Below are positions 1,015 through 43,300 of a DNA stretch of 64,000 nt, piece by piece (positions within the stretch are counted from its first letter, which is position 1; each line of letters starts with the position of its first letter). The translations under genes and the position numbers were made by a program. This stretch comes from a virus. The stretch lies in the IMG/VR virus record IMGVR_UViG_3300003690_003399, positions 1-64,000 of that record, one strand, 5' to 3'. A model generated the notes under the pieces. The model did no database searches. It was not told where the DNA came from and saw nothing but the letters and a program-made list of their open reading frames with translations.

Positions 1015-1226
1015 AGCTCCTAGCTGAAAAAAATAAAAGAAAATTTACAGTTGGCGACTTAGTACAATTTGATATATCACATATATTAGGAATTGTAACT
1101 GACATAAAAATAGCTGAAACCTTTAGCCCTTTAGAAGAAATATTAGATGTACAAGTTCGCTGGATCGATGGCGAAGAGTTTTGGTGTTTAGAATTCACTT
1201 TAAAGCTAATTTCTAGCGTTAAGTAA
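1011..1226 (+). CDS. Small SH3-like beta-barrel phage protein
   Basis: TTG start overlapping the iscA stop; FTVGDLV...GIVT...VRW pattern. Confidence 0.55.
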   Translation: MKLLAEKNKRKFTVGDLVQFDISHILGIVTDIKIAETFSPLEEILDVQVRWIDGEEFWCLEFTLKLISSVK

Positions 1227-1233
1227 CTATTTA
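1225..1233 (+). promoter_or_regulatory. Candidate phage late promoter AACTATTTA
   Basis: Exact motif ending 28 nt before ATG 1262; same spacing at 5937 and 18719. Confidence 0.55.
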
Positions 1234-1261
1234 ATAATACATATATAAAAAGGGTTCTCCT

Positions 1262-2203
1262 ATGAAAAACGACATGATGCTTATAATGGAAAATTGGCGC
1301 AAAGGTCAAGAAAAACTTTTACTTGAAGGTAAAATTCTTGATTGGATTAAACAAAGCATTAAAAACGGCTTTAAGAAATTAACAAAGAAGCCCGAAGTGT
1401 TTGATGCAATGGTAGAAGACGCAAAAGCATCCTTCGAAGAAATAATGATGGATAAATTAAAAAACAATCCTGAAGTCCAAGAAATAGGAAGAGAAGTTGC
1501 AGATATAATTAACGCACAACAATCTTCAAATGATGAATTGGCTTTAAATGAGGGCTGGACGGATCCCGAACCGGCCGGCGCGCAGCCCGAAGATCCTGAA
1601 GACCCTGAAGACCCTGAAGACCCTGAAGATCTCGACCCAGAGACTCCCGAAACTGAAGAAAAAAAAGAATTATCCGATGATGATTTGAGAGAAATAGGTT
1701 TATCTGATGAACAGATTGATAAATACAGGGAGAAGTTTTCAGAAATAATTGCATCGAGCATTCTCGAAGCAGCGGAAGAAGCTACTGGTAAAGTGGCCCC
1801 ACCAGAAGTTAAAGATTTCCTTGTGCGGTTTTTTAAACGATCATCGAAGATGATTGCATTTGGATTTGTTGATAACTTTATTATGATCACAGCCGGAGAC
1901 TATATTGATCCTGAATTAAAGAATTTGTTAGGTACTTCTACTATGTTTGCAGCCGGAATAGGAAATATGATATCAGATGTCGCTGGTGAAGAGGCCGGCG
2001 GCCTACTCGACTCTACATTAGAAAAAATGGGCCTGGATATCCAGGATGTCTCTGATGAACAAATGGAGGTGTCGCCGGGCTGGATGCGATTTATGGACAG
2101 ACGCGCAGGAACGTTTGGTGTCGCAATTGGCTGCCTTTTAGGAATGATTCCACTGGCATTTATGGAAGATAAGGAAAAAGATGACCGTGAAACTCTTATT
2201 TGA
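1262..2203 (+). CDS. TMEM65-family membrane domain fused to an N-terminal IMENWR tag and acidic linker
   Basis: FGFVDNFIMITAGDYID...STMFAAGIGNMISDVAG...GVAIGCLLGMIPL matches the TMEM65 signature (FGFLDNAIMIVAG...STMAAAALGNLVSDLAG...GVTIGCILGMFPL). Confidence 0.85.
   Translation: MKNDMMLIMENWRKGQEKLLLEGKILDWIKQSIKNGFKKLTKKPEVFDAMVEDAKASFEEIMMDKLKNNPEVQEIGREVADIINAQQSSNDELALNEGWTDPEPAGAQPEDPEDPEDPEDPEDLDPETPETEEKKELSDDDLREIGLSDEQIDKYREKFSEIIASSILEAAEEATGKVAPPEVKDFLVRFFKRSSKMIAFGFVDNFIMITAGDYIDPELKNLLGTSTMFAAGIGNMISDVAGEEAGGLLDSTLEKMGLDIQDVSDEQMEVSPGWMRFMDRRAGTFGVAIGCLLGMIPLAFMEDKEKDDRETLI
1586..1630 (+). repeat. 9-bp tandem repeat x5 (ccygaagay) encoding (PED)5
   Basis: cccgaagat cctgaagac cctgaagac cctgaagac cctgaagat. 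Confidence 0.9.
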
Positions 2204-3332
2204 AAATTGGCGAGAATACCGATTGCAGGAGGCCGAAGAAGCAGAGACTGAAGAAGAAACTGAAGAAGAAACTTCTGAGGATGCTGTATTAGATTTATCA
2301 AGAGAGTTTGATTCTGGTTTCTGTAAATATAACCCCCTTATAAACGAGTATGCACAATACTCTCCAGATCAATTAGCTGATGTATTAATGTTTGTAATCG
2401 GTACACAACAAATGAGGTGGTATGATGTAGTGCCAAAGTTTCCAATATTATTAAAATTTGTTCATGAAAATGATGGTTTAATGACTGATAAAAATTTGCT
2501 GAACCCGGGCAAAAAGAAACCTAGATATGATTTTTCTGGATTTGGCCAATTGGTTATGGGCCCGCGCAAACATGCAATTGATTATTTGTGGAAAAACAGA
2601 GAAAAGATATATTCTAGTTTTAGTAGCTTGTTCAGTGAATATAATAATTCTAGTGGACTAAAAAAAGAAGAAGCATTGTTTAATATTTATTTGCAAACAT
2701 TAACATTACCAGGATTTGGCTTACCAAAAGCGGCGTTTGCAACTCAATTAATCATTGGTCGTTTGGGTTGTATTGATTCAATTAACCTCAACATATATAA
2801 AGGAATATCAAAAGAATTTAACATATTGACACCTGGAGGTAAAGGATTTCGAGCACCTAAAGTTACTACATCTGGTAAAAAAGTTATTCAAGCGGGGGAA
2901 TTCGATAGCAACATAATTAAGCTCGGACCTAGGGGCATTGAATTGGCCGAAAAATACGTAGAATTTTTAAGGCAAATTGCAAAAGAAACTGGTGCTAGTG
3001 ATATCTCTCACAAATTGTGGGATTCTTGGGTAGAGTTGGTAGCTAAAAAAATCAACATAAAAGACGACATCAAAGTAATAATGCCAGATGGGTCTGAGCA
3101 TGTTGTACCTAATGATTATTCCAAAAATATAAAAGGAGCAGAAACAAATCCTTCTGCCGCCTTCAGAAAAAAATATATAGGTAAAATAACCGGTCAAGAT
3201 GTTTCTAGACAACATCATATACCAACAATGAATGAAAACAAAAAAGATCAACTATTATTTGAAAGCTGGTCCAAATATTTTTATAACTCTTTAAAAGAGC
3301 GTTTAATTAGAATAAAGGTCAAAACAAGATGA
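2181..3332 (+). CDS. HhH-GPD/Ogg-like DNA glycosylase-fold protein with KLLFENWR tag
   Basis: LPGFGLPKAAF helix-hairpin-helix with conserved Lys, followed by GCIDS Asp. Confidence 0.55.
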   Translation: MTVKLLFENWREYRLQEAEEAETEEETEEETSEDAVLDLSREFDSGFCKYNPLINEYAQYSPDQLADVLMFVIGTQQMRWYDVVPKFPILLKFVHENDGLMTDKNLLNPGKKKPRYDFSGFGQLVMGPRKHAIDYLWKNREKIYSSFSSLFSEYNNSSGLKKEEALFNIYLQTLTLPGFGLPKAAFATQLIIGRLGCIDSINLNIYKGISKEFNILTPGGKGFRAPKVTTSGKKVIQAGEFDSNIIKLGPRGIELAEKYVEFLRQIAKETGASDISHKLWDSWVELVAKKINIKDDIKVIMPDGSEHVVPNDYSKNIKGAETNPSAAFRKKYIGKITGQDVSRQHHIPTMNENKKDQLLFESWSKYFYNSLKERLIRIKVKTR

Positions 3333-5494
3333 AGTTATTATTTGAAAATTGGCGAAATCATTTAGCTTCCCTCGAAACACAACTTTTGATTGAGGGCATT
3401 GTAAAAGATGTCAAAACGAAATATATACATATCTCTGAAGTGATTGACCATCTGGTAGAAAATCTACAACCTTTCGACGGGATTAAATATCTTAGGTGGG
3501 CGGCTAAACAGGCCATGAAATCTTATGATGCGGCGAAGGCTCACGATCACGTCGATCCCAAAGAACCCGCAATGGGACAGGCAGTCATGTTAATTCCACA
3601 AATTAAAAGATTCGATGAATCTAAGCAACGCTTCCCGAAATTTGGCTTCTCTACAGATATTAATTCTTATCAGTCTTTCGAAGATCTACAAAGTGCAGTT
3701 GAAACCGTCGAGGCAGAAGAAACACAGAAAACAAAAAGAGCAGAAGAAAAGCGCGCAGCTTTTAGCGAAGCGGATATACTTACAGGCCAAGATAAAGGTG
3801 ATGATTTTTTTATTGTTCGCCCATATACGAAAAAAGCCGCCTGTTATTTTGGTCAAAGATATGGCGGCACACAAGTAAAATGGTGTATCACTCAAGAAGA
3901 GATGGACTATTTTGATGACTACACTGATCGTGGAGACGCCTTTTATTTTGTTTTTCCGACACATCTTTCAAAGGATAATCAATATAAAAAATTAGCTTTT
4001 GTTTTTAACTCAGATCTGCGCGTTACAAGCGTATGGGATGCGCCGAATAGTACTATAGACAAAGAAGAACAAGAGCAAGTATTCGTACAAAATCTCCTGC
4101 GCCAGGGTGAAGAAGAAGGAGCCTGGATGACCTATTTGTGGGCCACGGAGGGCAAGTTTGAAGATGAGGCGACCCAAAAAGATATAGAAAAATATAATCA
4201 AGCATTAAAAAGACTCGGATTACCCACATTAACCACAGTAAATGAATGGAAGGTCAAGAGAAGTGAGGACCCATCGCCCACCGAAGCGATTGCTCAAAGC
4301 CGTCTGAGTGAATACAAGAACGATGTACAGAAAGAAATTAAGGATTGGTCAAACGAAGCAATTCTCAAAAAGGCAAAAGACGCCCTGCGCGCAGTTGAAG
4401 ACGATACCCGCGAACATCTAAGAGAGAACCCGGTTGAATATACTGGACCAACATTTGCAGACTTTGAAGAGATCAAAGACGAGTACGAGGAAGAAGCAGA
4501 AAACATATGGATTGACCTTGAAGAATCAGATGATCCTCGCAATCCGTATTGGTCCGCGGGCGGCCAATTTGATTTTGTTCAAACAGATGAAGAAGGAAAC
4601 GAGCACATATTTGAATCAGATGATATACTGAATATGCTTGAACAGTCGTCCACCGAGGCTGGTATTTATATGGAGAACATCCAGGCCTCTATTGACGGTG
4701 GTGCAAACGTTCATTTCACCGCGGATCGTGATGAACATGGCTTAGAAGGATTTAGGTCATGGATCAATAGAATGAAAGAATGGGATGAAAAATGGGATGA
4801 ATTGTATGCTGACACGCTTAAGGCGCTGAAGCGACAAGAAATTTCAAGAGCCCGAAAAGGGGGCATGCCCGAAACTAAACATTTCAAAATAGAAGAAAAA
4901 AGAGAGGATTTAGAAGCTACTGCGGTGATAGAACTTAAATTACCAGGAGTACTTAATTTGTTAGGCGACCTCGGCGCCATGGACGAAGTCGAGTCGCACA
5001 GAGCAAGAGTAAACCTCAAGATAAAAACTAGAGATCTCTTCGATAGATATACTATAGCCAGAAATATTTATTTTAAAAGAATACAAGCCTATATTGATGA
5101 AGCTGAAAAAATAGCTGCAAAACAGTTAAATCTGCCGGGCATTGATGCACCGGAAAAAGAAAAAGTAGGTATACCCGCACTTGATGGGGTCTTTGCCAAT
5201 ACAAACTTTGATGTAGACAATGAAACTTTATACACTACACTTATGTTTACCATCCGCGGAGCACGTCAGGATGATGAAATAGAATATATTGTAAACTTCA
5301 TTAAATATCTAGATGATCATTTCGAAGAAATGATGCAAATATTAGCAGATTCAACGATACAGATGTTACGCAGAGCTATTAAACAGGGGTTAGAAAATTT
5401 ATTTGATTTTGGAGCACCGCCCGAGTCAAGCCTATCAGAATCAAAGAAAAGAACCAAACTTATCATCGAGATAAGAAAAAGAAAACAAACATAA
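3329..5494 (+). CDS. Large phage protein with KLLFENWR tag and a 'KWCIT' (PcfJ-like) domain
   Basis: IVRPYTKKAACYFG...KWCIT...YFDDY...FYFV...VWDAPN pattern typical of large-phage proteins. Confidence 0.5.
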   Translation: MKLLFENWRNHLASLETQLLIEGIVKDVKTKYIHISEVIDHLVENLQPFDGIKYLRWAAKQAMKSYDAAKAHDHVDPKEPAMGQAVMLIPQIKRFDESKQRFPKFGFSTDINSYQSFEDLQSAVETVEAEETQKTKRAEEKRAAFSEADILTGQDKGDDFFIVRPYTKKAACYFGQRYGGTQVKWCITQEEMDYFDDYTDRGDAFYFVFPTHLSKDNQYKKLAFVFNSDLRVTSVWDAPNSTIDKEEQEQVFVQNLLRQGEEEGAWMTYLWATEGKFEDEATQKDIEKYNQALKRLGLPTLTTVNEWKVKRSEDPSPTEAIAQSRLSEYKNDVQKEIKDWSNEAILKKAKDALRAVEDDTREHLRENPVEYTGPTFADFEEIKDEYEEEAENIWIDLEESDDPRNPYWSAGGQFDFVQTDEEGNEHIFESDDILNMLEQSSTEAGIYMENIQASIDGGANVHFTADRDEHGLEGFRSWINRMKEWDEKWDELYADTLKALKRQEISRARKGGMPETKHFKIEEKREDLEATAVIELKLPGVLNLLGDLGAMDEVESHRARVNLKIKTRDLFDRYTIARNIYFKRIQAYIDEAEKIAAKQLNLPGIDAPEKEKVGIPALDGVFANTNFDVDNETLYTTLMFTIRGARQDDEIEYIVNFIKYLDDHFEEMMQILADSTIQMLRRAIKQGLENLFDFGAPPESSLSESKKRTKLIIEIRKRKQT

Positions 5495-5501
5495 CTATTT
5501 A
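5493..5501 (+). promoter_or_regulatory. Candidate phage late promoter AACTATTTA
   Basis: Exact motif 7 nt before ATG 5509. Confidence 0.5.
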
Positions 5502-5508
5502 ATATATA

Positions 5509-7152
5509 ATGCCTTGTACAATCAACAACAACACTTCCCACGACCTATCTCAGTTGGAAGACTTAACCAAGAAATTAGTTCCTTTTGCGCAAAAGCAAAT
5601 AGGCTTTAATCGACCACCAACAATTAATTTTAATGATGACGAAAATAACGCAGCTAACCCGCTTGGAAGAACGGCGCAATACGATCCTTCAAATATGGAA
5701 ATTATTATCTTTGTTACAGGGCGCCACACAAAAGATATTCTGCGCTCAATTGCACACGAGCTAGTTCACCACGGACAAAATTGTAGAGGCGATCTGGACG
5801 GTGACATTCAGACAGAACTTGGTTATGCACAAAACAACAAACACATGAGAGGGATGGAGCGCGAAGCGTACGAAGTCGGCAATCTTTGTTTTCGAGATTG
5901 GGAAGACGGGATAAAACAGCAATTACCGCTACATGAAACTATTTATAGGGAATCTCTTATAGGAGGAGAAAGCATGACACTTAAAAACTGGAGAATCAAG
6001 GAACTTAATGATCTTATGATGGAAAAATGGGGGTATAAACCGCCCGTTAAAAAGAAGCTTGATGAAGAACTTGATGCCTACATGGATATGCTCGATTATC
6101 AAACTGGTGAAGAGAGTTTAGATGAAGACGACGATGACGATGACGGTGATGGCGATGGGGACGGCGATGACGATGATGAGTCTAGTAGTCATCTACATTT
6201 AAATCCTCAAAGCCCTACATTTAGGCTCAAAATAAAAAGCGGCCGAAAGCGACTGCAGGAAGTTGTCCCACCGAGAAAGCCGCCGCGAAAGCCGCCGCAG
6301 AGAAGGCGAACAGCGGCGGATATACAGATTAAGAAGGCCGCCGCTGTGGGACACCACCGGACATTCTGGACGACATTTACATGGGCCCCGCGCACTTCAC
6401 CAGCTAGTTGGACCCCTAGACAAGTTCACAAAGCCTACAAACAACTTCATCTGACAAAGGGCAAGCTGAAGCCCGGAAGCTGGCCCGGCGAGGCTAGGGT
6501 CCGGGTAGCTTTGGAAAATATGTACAACACAGGAAAATTTACATTACCACCCGCCCCGATGCTTCCAATACGCAGGTGGGAAAAAGAAGGAAGAGTAAAA
6601 AAAGATAAAGATAAACGAACAAAAGAGCAACAAAAAAAAGATCATGACAAATTAAAAGAACTAGAACGAGATTTTTGGGAAGAAGGGCCAGAAGTTATAC
6701 AAAAAGGCCGCTGGCGGCGATGGTGTGGGGGGCACAAAGGTGTTTGTACACTACTCTGGGTTGCCGGTATTGCCACCGCCACAACATTCCTCGCTAAATC
6801 ATTTGACGTAGACTTGCTACAGCACTATCGCAACTGGCAAAAAGGGTCAGCAACACCTCGCGCGGCGGAGTGGGAAACAAAAGTAGGTACCATAGAAGGA
6901 AGCCCGGGCGAACAAATACCAGCTGCGCCGGTCACAGCACCAGTAAAACAAGCCACCGCGGAGAAGTGGAAAACTATAAAGAAAGACGGTACCCCATGTC
7001 CTACAGGCACCTGGACTCAATTAACAGCTCATGGGGATCCCGTAGAATGCGGAGTTTCATTGAACGGTCAGATTAATCCTGATACCAAAAGAAAAACGGC
7101 GAAGTGTAAGTGGGTAAATGGGTGTCCTGAATTTAATCCCACTATCGAGTAA
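5509..7152 (+). CDS. Zincin (HExxH) metallopeptidase domain fused to an acidic/basic, TM-containing, Cys-rich C-terminal part; probable internal start at 5974
   Basis: RSIAHELVHHGQ...MEREAY; hydrophobic LLWVAGIATATTFLA; internal SD AGGAGG at 5961. Confidence 0.7.
   Translation: MPCTINNNTSHDLSQLEDLTKKLVPFAQKQIGFNRPPTINFNDDENNAANPLGRTAQYDPSNMEIIIFVTGRHTKDILRSIAHELVHHGQNCRGDLDGDIQTELGYAQNNKHMRGMEREAYEVGNLCFRDWEDGIKQQLPLHETIYRESLIGGESMTLKNWRIKELNDLMMEKWGYKPPVKKKLDEELDAYMDMLDYQTGEESLDEDDDDDDGDGDGDGDDDDESSSHLHLNPQSPTFRLKIKSGRKRLQEVVPPRKPPRKPPQRRRTAADIQIKKAAAVGHHRTFWTTFTWAPRTSPASWTPRQVHKAYKQLHLTKGKLKPGSWPGEARVRVALENMYNTGKFTLPPAPMLPIRRWEKEGRVKKDKDKRTKEQQKKDHDKLKELERDFWEEGPEVIQKGRWRRWCGGHKGVCTLLWVAGIATATTFLAKSFDVDLLQHYRNWQKGSATPRAAEWETKVGTIEGSPGEQIPAAPVTAPVKQATAEKWKTIKKDGTPCPTGTWTQLTAHGDPVECGVSLNGQINPDTKRKTAKCKWVNGCPEFNPTIE
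5937..5945 (+). promoter_or_regulatory. Intragenic late-promoter motif AACTATTTA with SD AGGAGG (5961) and in-frame ATG 5974
   Basis: Motif-to-ATG spacing of 28 nt is identical to the copies at 1225 and 18719. Confidence 0.55.
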
Positions 7153-7165
7153 AGGAGACTATATA

Positions 7166-10100
7166 TTGAATATTTGCCTTAAAAAGTCACCCCCCTTGCT
7201 CACCGAACAACAAACAAAACCGAGCGGCATTTCTGCATACGTTGTAGGCACCATAGATGGTACGGTATTAGGAAACTATCGCGGCAATAAAACTTTTTAT
7301 GGCGCGTCAATGGAAAAGCCTATCCTGGCATTAATGAATGCCATATATTATACTAATATAAAATACCATACGATTACTACTAAAAAAGATGATGAATCAC
7401 ATGAAGCTCATGTAAAACGGGATAACAAAGTATTTGCTATGGCCAAACGACTACAGCACGGGTGGATAACGTGCCCCGAGCAGTTAACGGGGGCGCCCCC
7501 AATCTGCTCAGAACTCATTCTTGACGAGAAGATTTTCTACCAAGAGGCAAAAAATCATTTATTAACAGATGAAGAACTCGATGGACTTTTGGGTTATCGT
7601 GGGCTAAATTCGAATGCTGTGAATAGAAGTATCAAGGGCACAAACCCCGGCGTTAAGTGGAGCACAGCCGACAAACGATATACAAATAGTAGAAATGGTA
7701 GGTGTACACCAAAACCGTGTGGCAAACCACCGCTGGCGGTCCCAATTTCTGCAATGAAGCAAATTTTACAAGATATTGACCCTAACGGACTTTTAAAAGG
7801 AATACGATTTGCAAATGGTCGACAGACCGCCTTAAGCATGTACAACTTCATGATGTTTTTACTAAATGCAGAAACAATACCCGCGCTAAAGGATTACAAC
7901 CCGCAAGTAAAGAGAATTTTAAATTATATGACGCGAAGCGTATTCGGCGACACATACCCTGGTGGGTATGATCGAGACTCAGCCGGGATTATTAAATTAA
8001 AAAAAGAATTGAATCGTTACTGGCCTAATAAAATTACGAGCATATGGGGAAAAGGAGGGTTCACACAAAAAACACCAGTTTTAAACTATGCTCTCGTAAT
8101 CAACAACCAATATATATTAGTTGTATATACTAGACAACCAATAATGAACACTGCGTGCAAACCACAACAATATCGCTGCGCTAAAAATGCAGCATTTCCA
8201 CCACTTACAAATGCAATAGTTCAAGCCTTGTCGAGTGCAGAAGTATTTGGAGCACCAACAACACAAGTTAAGAAAAAAGCAACATTTATAGACATAAGTA
8301 AGAGTGAAGAAGTGCCTGAGAATATAAGTTTTTTCCCAGGTACGAAAAATGCATGCGGTACAGCTGCCATGCAACGATATGTGATGATCGTCTTAGGTAC
8401 CAATTTACAAAATTACGAGTGGTGTGTTGGAGACATTAGTAAATGTCCAACTGGCGGACCTATCGCGGGACATGATTCTCATAAAATCGGCATTGATATT
8501 GATGTAGCTCTTCCAACGGAAAGCCGAGGCCTCACAGGCTGCTCGACCAACCAAAAAGAAGGAAAATGGATAAAAAAGGGCGGCCAAAAATTTAAAAATA
8601 TAACCCCCGAACAATTAGATGCTACCGCTGCATTCAATTTTTTAAAAGCAACAGCACCATGGGCTCAGTATGTCGGCGTAGATAAACAATTCTGGCCGAA
8701 GATAAAGGAAGCTGCCGAAAAAGCTGGAATGGTCAAAGATAGCGCAGCATATAAACGTACCTTCTCTGTGTTGAGAGCGTGGAAACACCATAAAAGCCAT
8801 TTTCATGTACGACTAGGGACGAATACCGTAATCCGGGTGGCCCCGACGAAAGCCGGCGGAGCCACTACTGTCACAGCAACCGCACAACCCAGTATATCTT
8901 CCGAGATAGAAAAAATAGGCCAAGAAAAAGGCGCCGCCGTGGTGCGCTGCAATCAGTGGAAAGTCGAGGAATATAAAGACGCCAACAACAACGCCTGTGT
9001 GAAGGGGACAGCTGGGTGCAAGAAACGTGGTCAGCCGGCGCCCGGATTTGAGTATGATCCAGATTTTTCTTTTGCAGATTTTTATTGTGATCTTGAGCTT
9101 TGGGCGCCCTGGATTGATAAGAATCTTAAAAGCGCTGAAGACATTTTAAAAAAGTACGACGCAACACTTAATTGGATTTATGATGGTGGTCACGATAAAG
9201 CAGCCGATGTATTGCAAAAGGCATGGCTGCAAGCAGAGATTGCGGACAAACTAAGCCAACAACGAGAAGAAGAGATTGATTTCATGGGCCCCGAATGGCA
9301 AAAGTTGCTGCAGCAGCTTAAAAATAAACCCGGAGTCTCGTACCCCACTCCTATTAATTGTGGCGGTCGCGACGCTCTTTGTGGAAAAAACCAAACATGC
9401 GAGGAGTGGCCAGGGAAAAAGCGATGGAGATGCGTTTACAAAAAGAAGGAGGTAAAAGAAAATATGCTACCGAAAAGTATTAATAAGACAATACATTTGT
9501 CTATTCAAAAAACTAATTATAAGAAGTACCTTTTGGAGAAAAAGCCAGTGAAGGCTGAAAAAATAAAAATAAATAAAAACCTCCTACAAGAAAGCATTAA
9601 ACAAAAGCTATTAAATAACCCACAGCTATTAGATCGGCTCGCTTTAAACGAAGGCCCTGTTAGGTGGTTGAGAGAATTCGTCGCTATTTTTAGGGGAATG
9701 TTCCCCAAAATGGCGCCACGAGGAAAGGGCACGTGGGAATTTGTAAAGAGAGCATCAAAACGGTCAGCGAACGTTATGGGAGGATCTTGGAAACTGACAA
9801 AGCACATGAGACACACTCTATTTAATAAGTACGAGGGCTTGGCGACAGGGATTTGGATGACGAGCATGTTTTTAGACGACGAGGGCGATCAACCCCTTAC
9901 ACAAATCTTCAATGCGTTATATTCGAACTTCACCATGAGCGGCCAACTTATTTATATCTTTCAAAGGTATGGCATGAAAAACCGGTCACAACAATTTATA
10001 TACTGGACCCAGGGAAGGCCCGAAAGATGGGAAAAAATGGGAAAAAAACAATACCTTATGCTTCCACGTAATAGGTACAAAGGAGCCGTCGAGTGCGAAG

Positions 10101-11152
10101 AAGATGCTGAAGGAAATCTCGTCGATACAAACTGCTGGGCTAGCGATGATTTTTGTGGTGATCTAGAAAAAAAGTACCAAGGCGCCAAATCCTGTGGGCC
10201 CTCCTATTCTGGACATACATCTGGTCTCGGGACATCGTACTGGACATTTATGAATCCATTCCTGTTTGCACAGAACGTCAAACAATATCTCAAAGCAACT
10301 GATACACTGCCCGAAGATAAGAAAAAGGAAATTATTGACTCCTTTGATGCTGCGATGTCTGCAACAAGAAACTTTGAAAGCCAGTGTGGCAAAATGTACC
10401 CTGAAGATGAGAAAGGTCAGAAGGTATGTCTCCTATTGGGCAAAAAAATGCTTGCTGCGAATACGGCAATGACGCTCATCTGGGATAAATACCTTGGCGC
10501 ACTTCAAACACCAGAAGGATCGCCGTATTCTCCAACAAGCCCATTCATACATTCTCCCGAGGCTCAAGAAAAGAGCAGAGAGGTGAAAGAAAAACAAAAC
10601 GTGGCCATGCAACTACAGTATGGATATTTTGTGTTAAGCAAGTGTGAATATTATGTCAAAAATGGCCCACCAGGCGGGGCGCCAGATCCGGTTTATGACT
10701 GTAAAAATCTAAGTCCTAATTACAAACGATGCGCCTCAGAGTGTCCACAGAAGCATACAATGGTTGGTGGGCGCCCCGGCGATCTACTTGAGCTAGGTTC
10801 ATCTCCTATGAATGGCCCGGGCTTTAAATATTGGTTCCAGAAGTACGTTAATGATCCTAAAAATAATTTTGGTGGCATAACTGCGTATGAAGCAATGTGT
10901 ATGTTGGTAAATACTGGCAACACCAAAGGGTGCAAAAGCCCCGGCGTGGATCCGGAACTATGGCCATTGACGGCGCGCCTATGCGGCATTTGTCCCCAAC
11001 TTAAAAAGGGGCAAAGAGCGAGTGCCCATGAGTATGTATATGGGCCCCCCGGATGGATTTCACCAGCTACTAAAAAGACGCTTCCTGCGCGCCCAACTGC
11101 GCCGCTGACCAGCGACGAGCCAGAAGAATTCCAACCAGAAGAGGAATACTAA
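7166..11152 (+). CDS. Multidomain protein: serine beta-lactamase/PBP-fold domain + MepA-like (M74) murein endopeptidase + Cys-rich regions
   Basis: SD AAAGGAG at 7151 with in-frame TTG at 7166; YGASMEK (SxxK) and WGKGG; GDIS..GG...GHDSHKIGIDID...HHKSHFHVRL. Confidence 0.7.
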   Translation: MNICLKKSPPLLTEQQTKPSGISAYVVGTIDGTVLGNYRGNKTFYGASMEKPILALMNAIYYTNIKYHTITTKKDDESHEAHVKRDNKVFAMAKRLQHGWITCPEQLTGAPPICSELILDEKIFYQEAKNHLLTDEELDGLLGYRGLNSNAVNRSIKGTNPGVKWSTADKRYTNSRNGRCTPKPCGKPPLAVPISAMKQILQDIDPNGLLKGIRFANGRQTALSMYNFMMFLLNAETIPALKDYNPQVKRILNYMTRSVFGDTYPGGYDRDSAGIIKLKKELNRYWPNKITSIWGKGGFTQKTPVLNYALVINNQYILVVYTRQPIMNTACKPQQYRCAKNAAFPPLTNAIVQALSSAEVFGAPTTQVKKKATFIDISKSEEVPENISFFPGTKNACGTAAMQRYVMIVLGTNLQNYEWCVGDISKCPTGGPIAGHDSHKIGIDIDVALPTESRGLTGCSTNQKEGKWIKKGGQKFKNITPEQLDATAAFNFLKATAPWAQYVGVDKQFWPKIKEAAEKAGMVKDSAAYKRTFSVLRAWKHHKSHFHVRLGTNTVIRVAPTKAGGATTVTATAQPSISSEIEKIGQEKGAAVVRCNQWKVEEYKDANNNACVKGTAGCKKRGQPAPGFEYDPDFSFADFYCDLELWAPWIDKNLKSAEDILKKYDATLNWIYDGGHDKAADVLQKAWLQAEIADKLSQQREEEIDFMGPEWQKLLQQLKNKPGVSYPTPINCGGRDALCGKNQTCEEWPGKKRWRCVYKKKEVKENMLPKSINKTIHLSIQKTNYKKYLLEKKPVKAEKIKINKNLLQESIKQKLLNNPQLLDRLALNEGPVRWLREFVAIFRGMFPKMAPRGKGTWEFVKRASKRSANVMGGSWKLTKHMRHTLFNKYEGLATGIWMTSMFLDDEGDQPLTQIFNALYSNFTMSGQLIYIFQRYGMKNRSQQFIYWTQGRPERWEKMGKKQYLMLPRNRYKGAVECEEDAEGNLVDTNCWASDDFCGDLEKKYQGAKSCGPSYSGHTSGLGTSYWTFMNPFLFAQNVKQYLKATDTLPEDKKKEIIDSFDAAMSATRNFESQCGKMYPEDEKGQKVCLLLGKKMLAANTAMTLIWDKYLGALQTPEGSPYSPTSPFIHSPEAQEKSREVKEKQNVAMQLQYGYFVLSKCEYYVKNGPPGGAPDPVYDCKNLSPNYKRCASECPQKHTMVGGRPGDLLELGSSPMNGPGFKYWFQKYVNDPKNNFGGITAYEAMCMLVNTGNTKGCKSPGVDPELWPLTARLCGICPQLKKGQRASAHEYVYGPPGWISPATKKTLPARPTAPLTSDEPEEFQPEEEY

Positions 11153-13557
11153 TGGGAACACCAGGACATATGGCACACCCGTTTGGCGACGAAGATCATC
11201 CTAGTTTATGGCAGCGCGTCAGAACTGGTCAAGATTTACTACGATACTTTCACGATATCAAAGAATTTCTCGAATTAAATCCTGGTAGTCTTAAAATTGA
11301 TGGCATCAATGTAAGTTTTAAGCTTATAACCACAGAAGGCGGCAAAAAAGAATTCCGAATGGATCGTGGTACAACGTACACTGAATCTGTTATCGGAATG
11401 ACCGCTGAAGATGCCTACAAAAAATGGCTACCCACACTAGAAGCTGATCCTGAAAAAACAGAAATGTGGAATACCCTTGGAAAAGATGAACAAAGAAACG
11501 CTTTTTTAAGGTTTCGCGAACTGCAATCCGAGCAAAAAACAGAAGAGGAAATATCTCAAGAAATGGGAGCATATTTTCAGAGCATAGAAAGATTGCCTGA
11601 TGAACATGTTCGTATGCTGCCTGGATTGTTTGTGGATGGATCATTTAAAGAACATGGCATGCCGGGCGCAATCAAAACTCTTTTAGAAATATTCAACGAG
11701 GCCTTACCAAGTATCCAGTACGAGCTTAAAGATTTGGGAATGTGGGACAATCCCCAAAAATTCTTTAACACTGAATATGTCGAAGGAAAAACAAACGTCC
11801 AACAATATGATAAAAACTTTTTAGCTATTCATGGTATTAATCAATTCTACGAAAAGAAAGCTCCTAAGTCTTGGGTAGCAGCTGGAAAATCCATGGACCG
11901 CAAGGGACTAGAAAGACCAACAAACCCCAAAACTGGTAAACTCGTTAAAGACGCAGGCGTCGAAATTCTTTATAATAGAGGCGCTTTAGAATCTCTTATC
12001 AAAAAAGTTAAACCAATTGCCTCGCAGCGCGGATTTGAAATTTATGGCGATATACCAACCCAACTCATAGCAGAAATCGATTATACTGAGACTCTCGGAT
12101 CTCCTTTTACAATTCAAATGACGGCGGAAGAGCAAACCACACATTCTTTAAGTGAATGGCTTGAGGAAGTACATAACCCTAAAAATGAAAAAGTTACAAA
12201 AGCCGATGGAACAACGGTCCCAGCTATTGGCAAAGATGTTTACATGGCAGTAACAAAACATATTCCCCTTACTGAATATCTCAAATCTCCAGAAGACGTA
12301 AAGAGGGCCGTTAGCGGCGCCATTTTTAATCACGCGACTCGAATGCTAGGAAATGACGTTAAGAGCGCTCTAGATAGCTCTATGGGCTCCGTAACGGATC
12401 ATGAAGGGGTAGTACTTAGGGGGATGGAAGATTTTCCAGTAAAAGTCACTGGAGAATTTATTGTTGGCGGTATGCAAACAGCATTTCGAGAGGGGGTGAT
12501 AAAAGAAGTCGAAGAGCTAAAAGGCATAAAAGATGTAGAAGAAGAATACAACATAGAAACTGTTAATATGGATGAGCCAGAAGCAAAGAAAAAGATTGCT
12601 TTAATTCCAGGGGGCTTTAAACCGCCACACAGAGGACATTTAGCTTTAGTTACACACTATTTAGAAGAAGTTGCACCGGACGGAAAAGTAATTCTTTTTA
12701 TGGGCAGTGGAGGCAAAACGCCGCGAACAATTCATGGGAAAGCTATAACTTATGAACACGCTTTACAAGTATGGAAAATATATTTAAACAATGAAAATAT
12801 TGCGTTCCCCAATGAAATTTTAGAGATTAAAGAAATTAAAGACGCCGGCCCAGTTGGTGCAGTTGTAGACTATATTAAAGAAGTCGACCCAGATAAAGAA
12901 ATTATTTATTTAGGCGCCGGAGAAAAAGATTCCGAACGATGGAAATTTATGCTTGATAACCCCAAGTATAACCCCAATAATGTAAAAGTATTTATTGAGC
13001 CTGTACCAAACTATAATGACAAAGAAGGCAAGCCAATGAGCGGCACAAATTTTCGTGATGCCATAGAAAGCGCCGATGAAGAATTAATTAAAAGCTACAT
13101 GCCAGAAGCTAGCCAAGATTCTTATAGAGAATTCATGGACGCTTTTGAAGATAGGCTAAAGGAGTCCCAGCAGCCGCTGGGCATATTTCTGCGGTTAATA
13201 GAGCAGACGCTTAATGAAACAATACCTGGTAGCGATATGACTAATATGTTTGGTTACGCTGCTGGGAACCTGAGCAATATAACTCGCCCCGATATCGCCA
13301 CTGGATCGGAAGAAGAGGAAGAAGTAGAAGAAAAGCCAACGGCCAAAGACGTATTCGAAGCATTTATTGCTGCGATAAAAGGCGTAGCAGAAGAAAGTGG
13401 TGTTAAAAATGGCGATGACGAAGAATTAGAAGAAATATCGGCGATGGGAGCAGGCGCAGTTGAAATGGGCGCAGGCAAGCGCGATGATAAAGAGAAAGAA
13501 ACGTTAATTCGTGAGGTTGAAGACTATTTATTTAGTACTTTAGGAGATATTTTATGA
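11152..13557 (+). CDS. Ligase-fold nucleotidyltransferase (DUF6267-like) fused to a HIGH-superfamily cytidylyl/NMN adenylyltransferase-like domain
   Basis: GHMAHPF, KIDG (motif I), EGVV and VKVTG; then PGGFKPPHRGH and MSGT. Confidence 0.7.
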   Translation: MGTPGHMAHPFGDEDHPSLWQRVRTGQDLLRYFHDIKEFLELNPGSLKIDGINVSFKLITTEGGKKEFRMDRGTTYTESVIGMTAEDAYKKWLPTLEADPEKTEMWNTLGKDEQRNAFLRFRELQSEQKTEEEISQEMGAYFQSIERLPDEHVRMLPGLFVDGSFKEHGMPGAIKTLLEIFNEALPSIQYELKDLGMWDNPQKFFNTEYVEGKTNVQQYDKNFLAIHGINQFYEKKAPKSWVAAGKSMDRKGLERPTNPKTGKLVKDAGVEILYNRGALESLIKKVKPIASQRGFEIYGDIPTQLIAEIDYTETLGSPFTIQMTAEEQTTHSLSEWLEEVHNPKNEKVTKADGTTVPAIGKDVYMAVTKHIPLTEYLKSPEDVKRAVSGAIFNHATRMLGNDVKSALDSSMGSVTDHEGVVLRGMEDFPVKVTGEFIVGGMQTAFREGVIKEVEELKGIKDVEEEYNIETVNMDEPEAKKKIALIPGGFKPPHRGHLALVTHYLEEVAPDGKVILFMGSGGKTPRTIHGKAITYEHALQVWKIYLNNENIAFPNEILEIKEIKDAGPVGAVVDYIKEVDPDKEIIYLGAGEKDSERWKFMLDNPKYNPNNVKVFIEPVPNYNDKEGKPMSGTNFRDAIESADEELIKSYMPEASQDSYREFMDAFEDRLKESQQPLGIFLRLIEQTLNETIPGSDMTNMFGYAAGNLSNITRPDIATGSEEEEEVEEKPTAKDVFEAFIAAIKGVAEESGVKNGDDEELEEISAMGAGAVEMGAGKRDDKEKETLIREVEDYLFSTLGDIL
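13522..13530 (+). promoter_or_regulatory. Candidate late promoter GACTATTTA
   Basis: 23 nt before ATG 13554, followed by SD AGGAG. Confidence 0.45.
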
Positions 13558-14324
13558 ACCAAGAAGAAGCAAGGCTCAGAGCATTGATTAGAAAAGGCAT
13601 TCAGATTGTAACAGAGCGCAAAGAACAGCAACAAACTGAAGTACAAAGATTACGCAATGTTATTCATCATTTAATTGGCGAAGTTAAAGGTACCACCGAT
13701 GTTGCCGATAGAGTAATTCATAAAAATAGCGGAATTAACGTTTTAGACACTCTCCTAAAAAATGTTATTAAACAAATAGAAAGCTATTATAAAGATCTCT
13801 CTTCAAATGATCAACAGCGTAAATCCTTTAGATATCACTTTTTAATTAATTTTAAAAATGCTCTCGCGCCCATTAATGCAAATAGAGACGCACCAGATAA
13901 AGAGGCATTAGCAGAGCAAGATCTTAGTGTATTAATCGATGATGAACTAGATGATGAGGACATTGATACTCCTCCCGATGAATCAAAATTCCTCCCCGCG
14001 AGACCTCAAGATGAAGAAGAAGCCAAAGACGAAGAAGAAAAAGAAACTGGTTTTATTAAGTTAGACTCCGATGATCCTTCGGTTCGACAGGGCGCCGCAT
14101 TTGCTGAAAAAGCCTGGAATGATGTAGAGAATCAAATTCAAACTGCATACGAAGATTTGATTGATCCAGAAGATGCCGCGGCATTTTATGATTGGGGTCT
14201 TACAAATTTAAAACTTTATTTTGATAAATTTGAAGATGAAATGGCAGAATCTGGACAAGAACCGGAAAGTCCCGATTACCCACCAACGGGGCAGGCCCCT
14301 CTAGAAGAAACATATGAAATATGA
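13554..14324 (+). CDS. Acidic conserved phage protein (putative internal head protein)
   Basis: 256-aa ORF with good SD; RLRALIRKGI and RLRNVIHHLIGE amphipathic repeats. Confidence 0.6.
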   Translation: MNQEEARLRALIRKGIQIVTERKEQQQTEVQRLRNVIHHLIGEVKGTTDVADRVIHKNSGINVLDTLLKNVIKQIESYYKDLSSNDQQRKSFRYHFLINFKNALAPINANRDAPDKEALAEQDLSVLIDDELDDEDIDTPPDESKFLPARPQDEEEAKDEEEKETGFIKLDSDDPSVRQGAAFAEKAWNDVENQIQTAYEDLIDPEDAAAFYDWGLTNLKLYFDKFEDEMAESGQEPESPDYPPTGQAPLEETYEI

Positions 14325-14665
14325 AACTAACTAAATCAAAACTTAAACAGCTAATCAAAGAAGAGTTGCGAAAAGCGCTTCATGAATCATTTGATGAAAA
14401 AGAGTTTCAAACTTGTGTACAACAAATAATAACTAAAGACTACACGGGTACTAATTTCCAAAAGAAATACGACGCCACAATGTCATGTTGTACAGAATAC
14501 TGGAAAAGAACGGGTCGATCCACTCACGAAACATACGATCAAAATGTTGCAGATTGTAAATATGTTCGATGCATCCAAATAATAAAAGGCACTAGTGGCT
14601 ACCAAAAGGCTGATGCAAGTGGGAAGAAAGAGCGTATGCAAAGGTGCCGTCGGTGGCATCCTTGA
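14321..14665 (+). CDS. MKLTKSKLKQLIKEEL-tagged small Cys-rich protein
   Basis: N-terminal motif common in uncultured T4-like phage proteins; ALHE site; six Cys. Confidence 0.65.
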   Translation: MKLTKSKLKQLIKEELRKALHESFDEKEFQTCVQQIITKDYTGTNFQKKYDATMSCCTEYWKRTGRSTHETYDQNVADCKYVRCIQIIKGTSGYQKADASGKKERMQRCRRWHP

Positions 14666-15087: not shown

Positions 15088-15116
15088 TTGACATATAATA
15101 TAATATTGTATATACT
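15088..15116 (+). promoter_or_regulatory. Sigma70-type promoter for tmRNA
   Basis: TTGACA (15088) - 17 nt - TATACT (15111), preceded by an A-tract. Confidence 0.85.
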
Positions 15117-40070: not shown

Positions 40071-40360
40071 AAAATGTTGACAAGTACATTGAAGAATCAC
40101 TTACCAATATAAGGGACGACCGCGCAGTAACTTCTACTCTTTTAACTGAGCTGTTAATAGAGATGAAAAAAGCTGGCGACCTTGAAACTCACAAACAGTT
40201 AGGCCTCATCGCTTCTAAATATGTTGAAACTCTCCAGCGTTCCAACGAACAATTAGTTAAAATTGCCGCGCTGCTAAATAAAAGACAGGGCGGCTCTATT
40301 GAATTAGATGAAAGCGACAAACAAGAACTTTTTGACTTAATCCAGGGAGAAGGTAATTAA
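40055..40360 (+). CDS. Helical hypothetical protein
   Basis: Coupled ORF, 101 aa. Confidence 0.55.
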   Translation: MGQRIKNVDKYIEESLTNIRDDRAVTSTLLTELLIEMKKAGDLETHKQLGLIASKYVETLQRSNEQLVKIAALLNKRQGGSIELDESDKQELFDLIQGEGN

Positions 40361-43300
40361 TGGCCATTAATATGCGCGGCGACGCGTCGACGACTCCAGC
40401 AACGATGCATTATCGGCCGGGTACTCTAAATGTATTGGACACGCCCGAATGGGCAATTGCGATTAGCCCCAATGACAGCGGCAAGTCTGTGCAATACTTG
40501 ATTAATCAACATGTACTTACACCCAACAAGTTTGAAAGTGTTGGCACTCTGTATGGCATTTTGTTACGAGAAAATAGTCCTTACAGCGACAATGATCCTT
40601 ACACACCTTTAGATATTTTGCACGCGGCAACTTTTGCCATGCGCGGCGCCGATGGTCTCAGGTTACCCACTTATAAAGTTCGCATACCAGAACTTCATTT
40701 TATGTTACCGATTCCTAAAAATTTGAATAACCCCACACAGACTGATAAAATTATTATAGATTGTTATCCCACCATACAAGCAGTTGATACAAAAGTATCA
40801 CGCGCACAACCCGGCGACATAGTAAAAATTGAAATGGCAAATAGAGGCACTATTTCTAGGCTTTATTATCTTGGTCCCGTTGATCCCGACAGTACAGCAA
40901 ACCCATGGGTTGTTGGCCCACACAGTCCTCCTTATAACTATGGGCAACTTCTTGAAGAGTGCAAAAAGAAATATTCTAATGCTGGCTCTCGCGGAGATGT
41001 AATCGGCAGGGGTGACAATGTGGCAAAACCAAATAGTGATGTTCCCATCGTTGTTAAAGGCCTCGGCCACGGAGAAAATAAAATCATCATTGGTACGGTA
41101 TATAAAAAGTGGCTTCATAAACTATTTCAAAGATTAAAGGCTGAAGACAAATATAAAGGCCTCGTGTGGCTAGGGGTGTGTAAAAACAATGGCGCAGAAG
41201 ACCAAGAAAAAATGCTCACAGGCAATGGTGCAACCATAGGCCGCGGCACCGGACGTTCTACTATAATCTACATGCCGGCTAGCACAGATCCCCATTCTCC
41301 ACTAGAGATAATTTATTGGTTTCATGACGCCTTGGGGTTTAAAAACAACACAAAAGAGTGGAATAAACTTTGGGTCTCCTTAAAAGCGATGTCAAAGAAA
41401 AAGAGCACACTCGACGGCGCTCGCCGCAATTTTATTCTTGTTATTCCTGAAATGTTGTGGTCCGAAGAGGCATCTGGAATATATTCTTCAAGAGAGGGAG
41501 AATTGATATTTGGCGCCTCAGCCATGCCCACAACAAACGGAGCTTTTTCAGGAGGCTACAAAAATAGAGAGTGGGCTGCATGGGGGTTTGATGGCATACC
41601 AAACGAAAAAAATATAGTATGGGAAACGTTTGGGGACAAATCTATTTCATTTGCGCCAATTTCTTACTCCGAAGCCGGCGCCCCAGTGTATACAGGTGCC
41701 GACCTCCTAAAGATCCCCGCGGGCCATTCGTCTCTTTCCATGGTCGGCAACCCTCGCCTAGGCATACCATTTGGATTTCAACCACTTTCTTCACAAGTCG
41801 CCCCCATACCATTCGGCGATACAATTACTTGGCAGTGGGTCCAAGGTTTGCCATCGAACGTCGCCGGAGATATGGTGCTTCTTCACCAAGAAATATTAGC
41901 AATATTGAAGGATCGCTTTGGTGTCGCCACCGATACTAATAAATATGTAACGCTAGTTGGCCACAAAAAAGGAGGAATTGCAATTGCTAATTTGGCGCGC
42001 CTAAACAAGCTTGGCAAAGGCCCCGCGCAACTATATGCTTCAAAAATATCTTTCATTGACGGAGATTATGCTGGGATGAATTATGTGTCTCCAAAAAAAC
42101 TCTACGACTATGGAAAAAATTGGTATCATGGTGGCGATTTATACGAAGTTATAAGAAACATAGATGATAGTACTACACTAGAAATACATCTTAGTTGGGG
42201 CGCAGGGACTCCCCTACGACCAAAACAGACAGCCGGCGCTTTCCTCGGCGCACTGCAACATGTCCGAACATGGGCACTTGCACTTCCTGGTTTTAATTTT
42301 GATAAGGGGGTTGAAGCATTAGACAAATTTTATTCTTATATTTGGCCAAAATATTGGCCCAACGACTGGAGCATGACCGGCCCAGCGTACACTTCGATTG
42401 TAACTTATCCAGTCTGGTCCAGCGCCAAGTTTTTGAAAAAAACTTATACTGAAGGATACGGAGCCATACAGGGGAAAATAAATGAGATGATACAATTACC
42501 TTCTCCTTTTTCAAATATCATTTTTAAAGGATGGCCAACCTCCGATGCCCAAGGCGCCTTAGCGTGGCTCCCCCACAATGCACCAATGTCCGTTGCAACC
42601 GTGAAAGAAACCACACAAGATAAATTTTATAAAAAGTTTAATATAGATCCAGATATTCCATCTAATATAAAAAATATATTTAAAGACTTTAGAGGCAATC
42701 TCATATTATATAGATCTCAAAATGTTGGGCCCAGTAAGACTGTAGCGATATTAGAGCCATACGGTACGGCTGCACAGGCGCCCTATGAGCTTATTTATTA
42801 TTTCCATGGAGATATAGGATTAAATGGGGCAGCAAAAACATTCCAATCAGCACTAAAAAATCAATTTAATGTTATGATAGGAAATAAACGAAATGTGATT
42901 ATTGTTTTAATGGATATTGATCCATATCCTATGAGCCCATCATCAAATTTGTGGGATCTAGATCATGATCCTTCGGCAAGCTCGTTTGGTGATTTTCATC
43001 AAGAAGTTTTAAATAAAATATCTTCTATTTGGAGCGCAGATTGGCTGGACACCTTTGGTCATTTCGTATACCCCGAGTCGGACGCGCAAGAGTTAGGCCC
43101 TGTCGAGCAACAGCATTACTCGGAGAATGTACTCCCGTCCTTTGAAATGGCCACATATCCCTCGTTTATCACATTTAAGGCCCACGGTGGCGCCGGCCGA
43201 ATGCTTAAACACATTATAGATCATATGAATAATAACGATATCACTTCTACTTGGCAGACAACAACTAAATGGAAATATGACCCCCTCACCGGCGTACCCC

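Follow-up and report, generated by a model that had tools for sequence, protein, structure and literature searches.

Why should proteins that have little else in common begin with the same short peptide? The question is raised by eight closely packed plus-strand genes, g1 to g8, at positions 1262-14665 of IMG/VR record IMGVR_UViG_3300003690_003399, an 80,075-base viral record (CheckV completeness, 45%) whose positions 1-64,000 make up the window. A first-pass annotation had read all eight as effectors loaded into the capsid by shared address peptides, L-x-E cleavage sites at domain borders and basic tails, and had named them among the best candidates for an undescribed system. The eight proteins were indeed mutually unrelated, sharing only the tags and some acidic stretches of low complexity. 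The shared peptides were found at the N-termini of g1, g2, g3 and g8 and, as an internal tag-like segment, in g4; g5, g6 and g7 carried none. For g1, g2, g3 and g8, a capsid address tag with a protease motif is the best-supported reading, because of the anatomy of the tags, the gp21-type protease in complete relatives, the hypervariable placement of the tagged genes and promoter-like motifs common to structural genes; it does not hold for the remaining four. The four tagged proteins are probably loaded into the head and released there by a protease, through a variant of the capsid-targeting sequence (CTS) of phage T4 and not through an undescribed kind of system.

The source is a distant T4-like myovirus, uncultured and marine. 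Baseplate proteins (gp6- and gp25-like) are encoded at 53-55 kb of the record, and identity to the closest cultured phages, Microcystis phage Mel-JY01 and Flavobacterium phage immuto, is only ~32%. Near-identical DNA is present in vent-plume and seawater metagenomes: 97% of sampled words of the stretch were found in one hydrothermal-vent metagenome run, from which this DNA may derive, and 27-34% in two seawater runs, and no RNA run was among the matching sequencing runs listed. Related loci, given L-numbers, and complete tag-bearing relatives (n = 5 genomes, 180-205 kb) were compared; G001 is a complete tag-bearing relative genome. The tagged genes are as follows.

1262..2203, plus strand: g1, 313 amino acids (aa); tag A variant ..MMLIMENWRKGQEKLLLE at residues 1-22
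2181..3332, plus strand: g2, 383 aa; tag A KLLFENWREYRLQE, acidic linker and conserved body
3252-3284, plus strand: tag-like scar LLFESWSKYF near the C-terminus of g2
3300-3323, plus strand: basic C-terminal tail RLIRIKVK of g2
3329..5494, plus strand: g3, 721 aa; tag A MKLLFENWRNHLASLE, family-specific LLIEG at the start of the body
5456-5479, plus strand: basic C-terminal tail KLIIEIRK of g3
14321..14665, plus strand: g8, 114 aa; tag B MKLTKSKLKQLIKEELRKALHE at residues 1-22 (14321-14386), small Cys-rich body

Tag A is a 14-mer, MKLLFENWRx[YF][LI]xE, at the N-terminus of g1, g2 and g3. Its core pattern [LIM][LIM][FM]E[NSK]W was matched five times when the whole 80-kb record was translated in six frames (0.03 matches in triplet shuffles), each time in frame within g1-g4: at the N-termini of g1, g2 and g3, at the C-terminal end of g2 and in the interior of g4. 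To follow tag A beyond this record, viral contigs were searched with a degenerate DNA pattern for MKLLFENWR that left residues 10-14 free. At least 119 stretches matched; among the matches listed, to which all cluster counts refer, there were at least 179 tags, at least 152 of them on complete open reading frames (ORFs) of 14-837 aa, and at least 124 unique ORFs that reached 60 aa fell into at least 68 body clusters without detectable mutual similarity. At the positions left free, Tyr or Phe stood at residue 11 in 62 of the 68 clusters, Leu or Ile at residue 12 in 58 and Glu at residue 14 in 59. A hydrophobic-x-Glu motif (Phi-x-E) at residues 12-14 was present in 57 of 68 clusters and in the form [LI]xE in 54, and the clusters without it mostly differed by a one-residue shift. 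Conservation ended at residue 14, with none from residue 15 onward. Synonymous codons varied freely, with five Leu codons at position 3 (Phe in one cluster) and six Arg codons at position 9, and by this codon evidence selection on tag A is shown to work at the level of the peptide, not on a DNA element. The bodies behind the tag include NUDIX, HD, RNase T-like exonuclease, protein kinase, HNH, DnaJ and PGDYG domains. Tag A is virus specific: in 185,579 prokaryote genomes its pattern had one match, a chance 32-codon frame. Searches of GenBank phages by tblastn with short tag queries gave chance matches or none, to which the low-complexity filter may contribute, and a full-text literature search on the tag-A core peptide retrieved no relevant paper.

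Within the tag-A genes of this record, the tag is joined to quite different bodies. In g1, the tag A variant is followed by a helical, acidic (PED)n linker and then by a C-terminal TMEM65-like membrane domain (residues 197-302; Pfam PF10507, 3.5e-30); orthologues in L061 and L109 retain the tag, the latter in the canonical form MKELFENWRKYLKE. For g2, a GTG at 2187 taken as alternative start would yield exactly MKLLFENWR, and alignment of g2 with four orthologues gave the tag, an acidic spacer of varying length and a conserved body. The g2 protein had no match in Pfam, PHROG or PDB sequence searches, and its AlphaFold2 (AF2) model, built from five sequences, was unusable for a fold search (pLDDT, 46). 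The g3 family in L014, L100, L004, L073 and L055 retains the tag, the peptide EQLLIEGR and a basic alternating C-terminus; no match to g3 was obtained by tblastn against GenBank phages or in a PDB sequence search. In the relatives, further tagged families end in basic alternating tails of this kind (KIRIKVKK, KMRIRVKK, KIRLRIRR and KLKIRIKR). The basic C-terminal tail is a real second motif, carried by a minority of mostly large cargo. The beta tails of the first-pass annotation thus stood for g2 and g3, and RLKIK of g4, counted among them, is internal.

Tag B, with the consensus MK[LI]TKSxLKQ[IL]IKEEL..[ILV]LxE, is built in parallel to tag A: a hydrophobic-x-Glu again occupies residues 12-14, here as I-K-E, and a second L-x-E follows at residues 20-22. 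The peptide MKLTKSKLKQLIKE opens g8 and four adjacent genes at 78371-79870 of the record, and in the loci sampled tag B was carried by 56 unrelated, mostly small bodies (70 unique proteins). Among relatives the terminal Phi-x-E of both tags keeps a fixed register, so that the closing motif of each tag, as first claimed, is real. One gene start resembling tag B, MKLTQTKLQKLIKE, was also seen at position 190291 of LR756508.1, a 484-kb uncultured phage; this distant huge phage has a gp6-like baseplate protein in common with the present lineage. We considered tag B as a mimic of the scaffold N-terminus (LEQAIID versus LKQIIKE) and set this aside, the likeness being too weak to use.

A prohead protease that could act on such a motif is present throughout the complete relatives. 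Peptidase_S77, the gp21-type prohead protease, and a gp23-type capsid protein (Gp23) were each found in 5/5 complete tag-bearing genomes. Just upstream of the major capsid protein (MCP) gene of G001 lies an acidic scaffold-like ORF with 4.3 [LI]xE per 100 aa, versus a genome mean of 1.23, a density that is expected of a gp22-like substrate of a protease cutting at L/I-X-E. In the whole G001 proteome, the pattern LL.E.[WY] was confined to the prohead protease and the five tag-A proteins, in each case at the N-terminus. Lineage protease N-termini begin M.K.LLREY[YF]ELC in 4/4 recovered (L125 and L122-L124), and in three of these four L-C-E stands at residues 12-14; the N-terminus of T4 gp21 reads ..QLLIETWG (gene 21 at L149:4449-5087). 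LL-x-E-x-aromatic is therewith common to the lineage proteases, T4 gp21, tag A and the internal LLxExWG of g4. In the T4 literature, the N-terminal peptide of gp21 has been proposed to target the enzyme to the core in the manner of a CTS (PMC9026906). As another source for tag A we considered the MCP propeptide (LLNKW..LLEG in T4 and the lineage) and rejected it, since the register differs (LLxKW versus LLxExW) and the resemblance is loose. In T4 itself, the CTS (MKTYQEFIAEA, L154:3417-4416) resembles the N-terminus of the gp22 scaffold (MLKEQLIAEA, L149:5118-5927), with the cores QEFIAEA and EQLIAEA. When the first 40 aa of a tag-A protein were modeled in complex with the scaffold-like protein of G001, without controls, the score was 0.00, a result that weighs neither for nor against the tag reading.

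In many relatives the g4 N-terminal domain, g6, g7 and the gene that follows g8 keep the same order as one block, and the tag-A genes occupy a variable stretch directly upstream of it. The annotated swapping of cargo accordingly applied to g1, g2, g3 and g8, and the members of this block are genes conserved across the lineage. Promoter-like motifs of structural-gene type, ACTA[TA]TTA, stand upstream of all eight genes; the record contains 17 of them on the plus strand and 0 on the minus strand (span, 625-78325). Most of these sites are 15-70 nt before start codons, and 10/17 are 10-100 nt 5' of one, versus 7.6% expected. The following sites concern us here.

1226..1234, plus strand: promoter-like motif ACTATTTAA, 36 nt before g1
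5494..5502, plus strand: promoter-like motif, 15 nt before g4
5938, plus strand: promoter-like motif before Met156 within g4
13523..13531, plus strand: promoter-like motif, 31 nt before g7
14677, plus strand: promoter-like motif before the gene after g8
18720, plus strand: promoter-like motif, a further ACTA[TA]TTA site
74538, plus strand: promoter-like motif before a structural-type gene at 74567, beyond the window
78317, plus strand: promoter-like motif before the first gene of the tag-B array at 78371, beyond the window

In G001 the same motif occurs 29 times on the plus strand versus 3 times on the minus strand and sits before the scaffold/MCP pair, the tail sheath gene and a gp25-like wedge gene. 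All tag clusters stand directly behind it in both genomes (in this record g1, g7-g8 and the array at 78371; in G001 the clusters at 6522, 94610 and 157063). ACTA[TA]TTA is likely a late-type promoter of the lineage, distinct from the T4 late promoter TATAAATA, with the term late taken from the genes downstream. With the motif common to tag clusters and virion genes, the tagged genes and the virion genes appear to share their regulation. The T4 late promoter TATAAATA was not positioned before these genes, no sigma-70-like promoter was found upstream of g1, and the region showed no enrichment of sigma-70-like sites. The best of these sites here (11/12 matches) is at 15088-15116, before small genes at 15.4-16 kb; located just past the cluster, it may be the point at which transcription changes to an early type.

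The known system closest to this arrangement is that of the T4 internal proteins IPI, IPII and IPIII (and Alt), whose CTS is removed by gp21 after L/I-X-E (PMC9026906, PMC3012670). This 10-residue CTS targets proteins into the prohead core, is the only feature that the diverse internal proteins have in common and also works on foreign proteins, which it brings into the head (PMC9026906, PMC3012670). Like the CTS, which we read as MKTYQEFIAE in the first ten residues of IPII and IPIII, the tags are short N-terminal peptides with an MK start and a hydrophobic-x-Glu end on otherwise unrelated proteins, found in a T4-like lineage with an S77 protease and a gp23 capsid protein and encoded by genes in a variable region; the idea of cargo, proteins delivered together with the DNA, is also the same. 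The tags differ from the CTS in their length (14 and 22 residues versus 10), in the presence of two tag families side by side, in the range of cargo (in the sampled loci, at least 68 families behind tag A and at least 56 behind tag B, with large enzymes and a membrane domain among them), in the extra basic C-terminal tail on some cargo and in the resemblance of tag A to the protease N-terminus, and the present system is known from sequence alone. In phiKZ-like giant phages, head and ejection proteins are processed by the proteases gp175 (phiKZ) and gp245 (SPN3US) (PMC9026906, PMC5694885). These too are gp21-related proteases that cut many head-internal proteins after Glu, and the set of injected proteins is likewise large; their motif, however, is S/A-X-E, their substrates have long propeptides rather than a shared short tag, and the lineage is another one. 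By analogy only, a constant address module on swappable cargo also recalls polymorphic toxins, in which a constant N-terminal trafficking domain precedes swappable C-terminal cargo and recombination takes place at the module border. Those proteins, unlike the ones considered here, are substrates of bacterial secretion systems, have no homology to the tagged proteins and no protease-released propeptide.

Under the CTS-like reading, tagged proteins would dock on the core of the assembling prohead by their N-terminal helix of 14-22 residues, the gp21-type prohead protease would cut after the terminal hydrophobic-x-Glu and release the cargo inside the head, and the released cargo would enter the next host along with the DNA. 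In the hypervariable stretch, bodies would be exchanged and the tag kept. Docking, cleavage, packaging and injection are each inferred here. If true, the tags would be a simple sequence handle by which to catalog what uncultured marine phages inject before their genes are expressed; this class of proteins, likely to be rich in anti-defense and host-takeover functions, is otherwise unrecognizable from sequence. Capsid targeting as in T4, where three or four proteins are known to use it, would have been extended in nature to dozens of cargo families, and new short tags would become available for packing foreign proteins into phage heads. We advance only tentatively, as a doubtful extension, a lineage-wide head-loading code in what would be an abundant lineage of marine T4-like phages, with two interchangeable tags, tag A copied from the protease N-terminus, a basic tail on large cargo, at least half a dozen swappable injected proteins per phage (enzymes, a membrane protein and a zincin protease) and the tags as recombination joints behind the exchange of cargo.

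Several observations weigh against head loading of the tagged proteins. Peptidase_S77, gp23 and head genes were not found in the 80-kb record, and, because the record is a 45% fragment without head genes, the link to the protease rests on relatives. The likeness of tag A to the N-terminal peptide of the protease was a post hoc observation and gives moderate support only. Beyond the MK start and the Phi-x-E end, neither tag has any similarity to the T4 CTS MKTYQEFIAE, and neither was found in Mel-JY01 or immuto. The multi-pass membrane domain of g1 is awkward to pack as a soluble protein; the NUDIX, HD, kinase, exonuclease and DnaJ domains of tag-A cargo are typical of early host-takeover enzymes; and the promoter-like motif also precedes phoH and iscA-like genes. 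Glu14, finally, could be a residue of a docking helix rather than part of a cleavage site.

This last point leads to the alternative that fares best, in which the tags are docking helices for another hub (a phage chaperone; the host membrane, ribosome or polymerase; a phage compartment) and the proteins are neither cleaved nor packaged. The tag peptides were modeled as amphipathic helices, in a low-confidence model that would fit such docking, the conserved Glu could belong to the helix itself, and the enzyme-rich cargo, which resembles early accessory genes, fits as well. We nevertheless consider this alternative unlikely, as it leaves unexplained why two unrelated tags carry a hydrophobic-x-Glu at residues 12-14 where a gp21-type protease is always present in the lineage, why conservation ends exactly at the Glu and is followed by a variable spacer, and why tag clusters and head and tail genes have promoter-like motifs in common.

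Could the four remaining genes nonetheless belong to the same system? They are the following.

5509..7152, plus strand: g4, 547 aa; untagged N-terminus; zincin-like HExxH domain at residues 1-150 (5509-5958)
5974, plus strand: start of the internal segment of g4 from Met156, MTLKNWRIKELNDLMMEKWGY, with the promoter-like motif at 5938 and GGAGGAG upstream
7118..11152, plus strand: g5, 1344 aa, no tag; M74/LAS-type murein endopeptidase domain at ~8414-8818
11152..13557, plus strand: g6, 801 aa, no tag; KIDG ligase-like N-terminal domain fused to an HxGH cytidylyltransferase-like domain
13554..14324, plus strand: g7, 256 aa; two LRxxIRxxI N-terminal helices, acidic C-terminus

The N-terminal domain of g4 was modeled well (AF2 pLDDT, 85.5), and H83, E84 and H87 of its HExxH motif were invariant in 18/18 sequences. 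It had no Pfam match and no PDB sequence match; fold matches to the zincins IrrE/PprI, Wss1 and YbeY were weak (E, 0.009-0.03; probability, 0.97-0.99; TM score, ~0.4). The g4 family keeps, after this domain, an internal M-S-x-K-x-W-[KR]...LLxExWG segment. Domain and segment are separate genes in G001, and the L060 gene is also split directly after the domain. Family members range from 164 to 1459 aa, with C-terminal extensions from none to ~1300 aa (L014, L013, L067, L058, G001 and others); residues ~250-547 of g4, its C-terminal ~300 residues, are an extension found in this record alone. With its zincin-like domain and internal LLxExWG segment, g4 may use the same head-loading route. The endopeptidase domain of g5 was identified by Pfam (PF03411, 2.5e-10), with which a weak PDB match agrees. 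With a 1444-aa protein at 40360-44694, which adjoins baseplate genes, g5 has only the M74/LAS domain in common (26% identity over 161 aa). No homologue of g5 was found in any fetched locus or in the search for related loci; g5 is an insertion without relatives in the fetched loci. Residues 485-622 of g6 match Pfam PF01467, in agreement with a weak PDB match to NaMN adenylyltransferase; its ligase-like KxDG motif (KIDG) was read by eye, its start GHMxHPF is conserved, and orthologues are present in L014, L058, L006 and G001. For g7, 12 orthologues retain a family-specific N-terminus, without a Phi-x-E in fixed register, and an Atlas search returned unnamed viral clusters only. A place for g7 among the tag-B proteins was ruled out; its RLRALIRKGI, annotated as a shared tag, is part of a conserved helix specific to the g7 family. 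Together, g5, g6 and g7 are late-type neighbors, with no evidence of tagging.

That all eight genes are cargo of one code, with N-terminal tags, internal cuts at L-x-E borders and basic beta tails, is improbable. Such a code would accommodate the structural-type motifs in front of all eight, the conserved tag-like segment inside g4, the murein endopeptidase domain of g5, of a kind found in virion-associated lysins, and the basic tails on several tagged families. It is contradicted by the untagged g5 and g6, by the family-specific N-terminus of g7, by the conserved order of the g4 N-terminal domain, g6 and g7 in relatives, which are not swappable, and by the frequency of [LI]xE in the eight proteins, which was that of chance (59 seen versus 55.4 expected from shuffles). 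L-x-E at domain borders was therefore not retained as a general feature, relatives lend support only to the sites at which a tag ends, and LLTE, TLNE, the second RLQE and the two ALNE were not distinguishable from chance, though a hexamer, LALNEG, is common to g1 (residues 93-98, 1538-1555) and g5 (residues 841-846, 9638-9655). This hexamer could be a chance match (rough expectation, ~0.02) or a common internal processing site.

How, then, did the tags come to stand in front of so many bodies? Partial tags were found in genes that immediately precede tagged ones, at the 3' end: g2 has LLFESWSKYF, and a 611-aa protein of L013 (5740-7575), with a tagged gene directly after it, ends ..LFENWRGFLKED. 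Tag-only ORFs of 14 codons, MKLLFENWRRSLNE followed by a stop, were present at L027:11127 and L106:2727. These 3' scars and tag-only ORFs suggest that recombination between tags swaps cargo. They would also fit the view that the shared N-termini are functionless by-products of recombination, 5' joints for gene shuffling like mobile regulatory cassettes in T4-type phages, a view that we regard as very improbable given an invariant peptide with free codon variation and a tag retained on at least 68 unrelated families. A functional tag and recombination at the tags do not exclude each other, and such recombination probably explains the swapping of cargo behind the head-loading tags proposed here.

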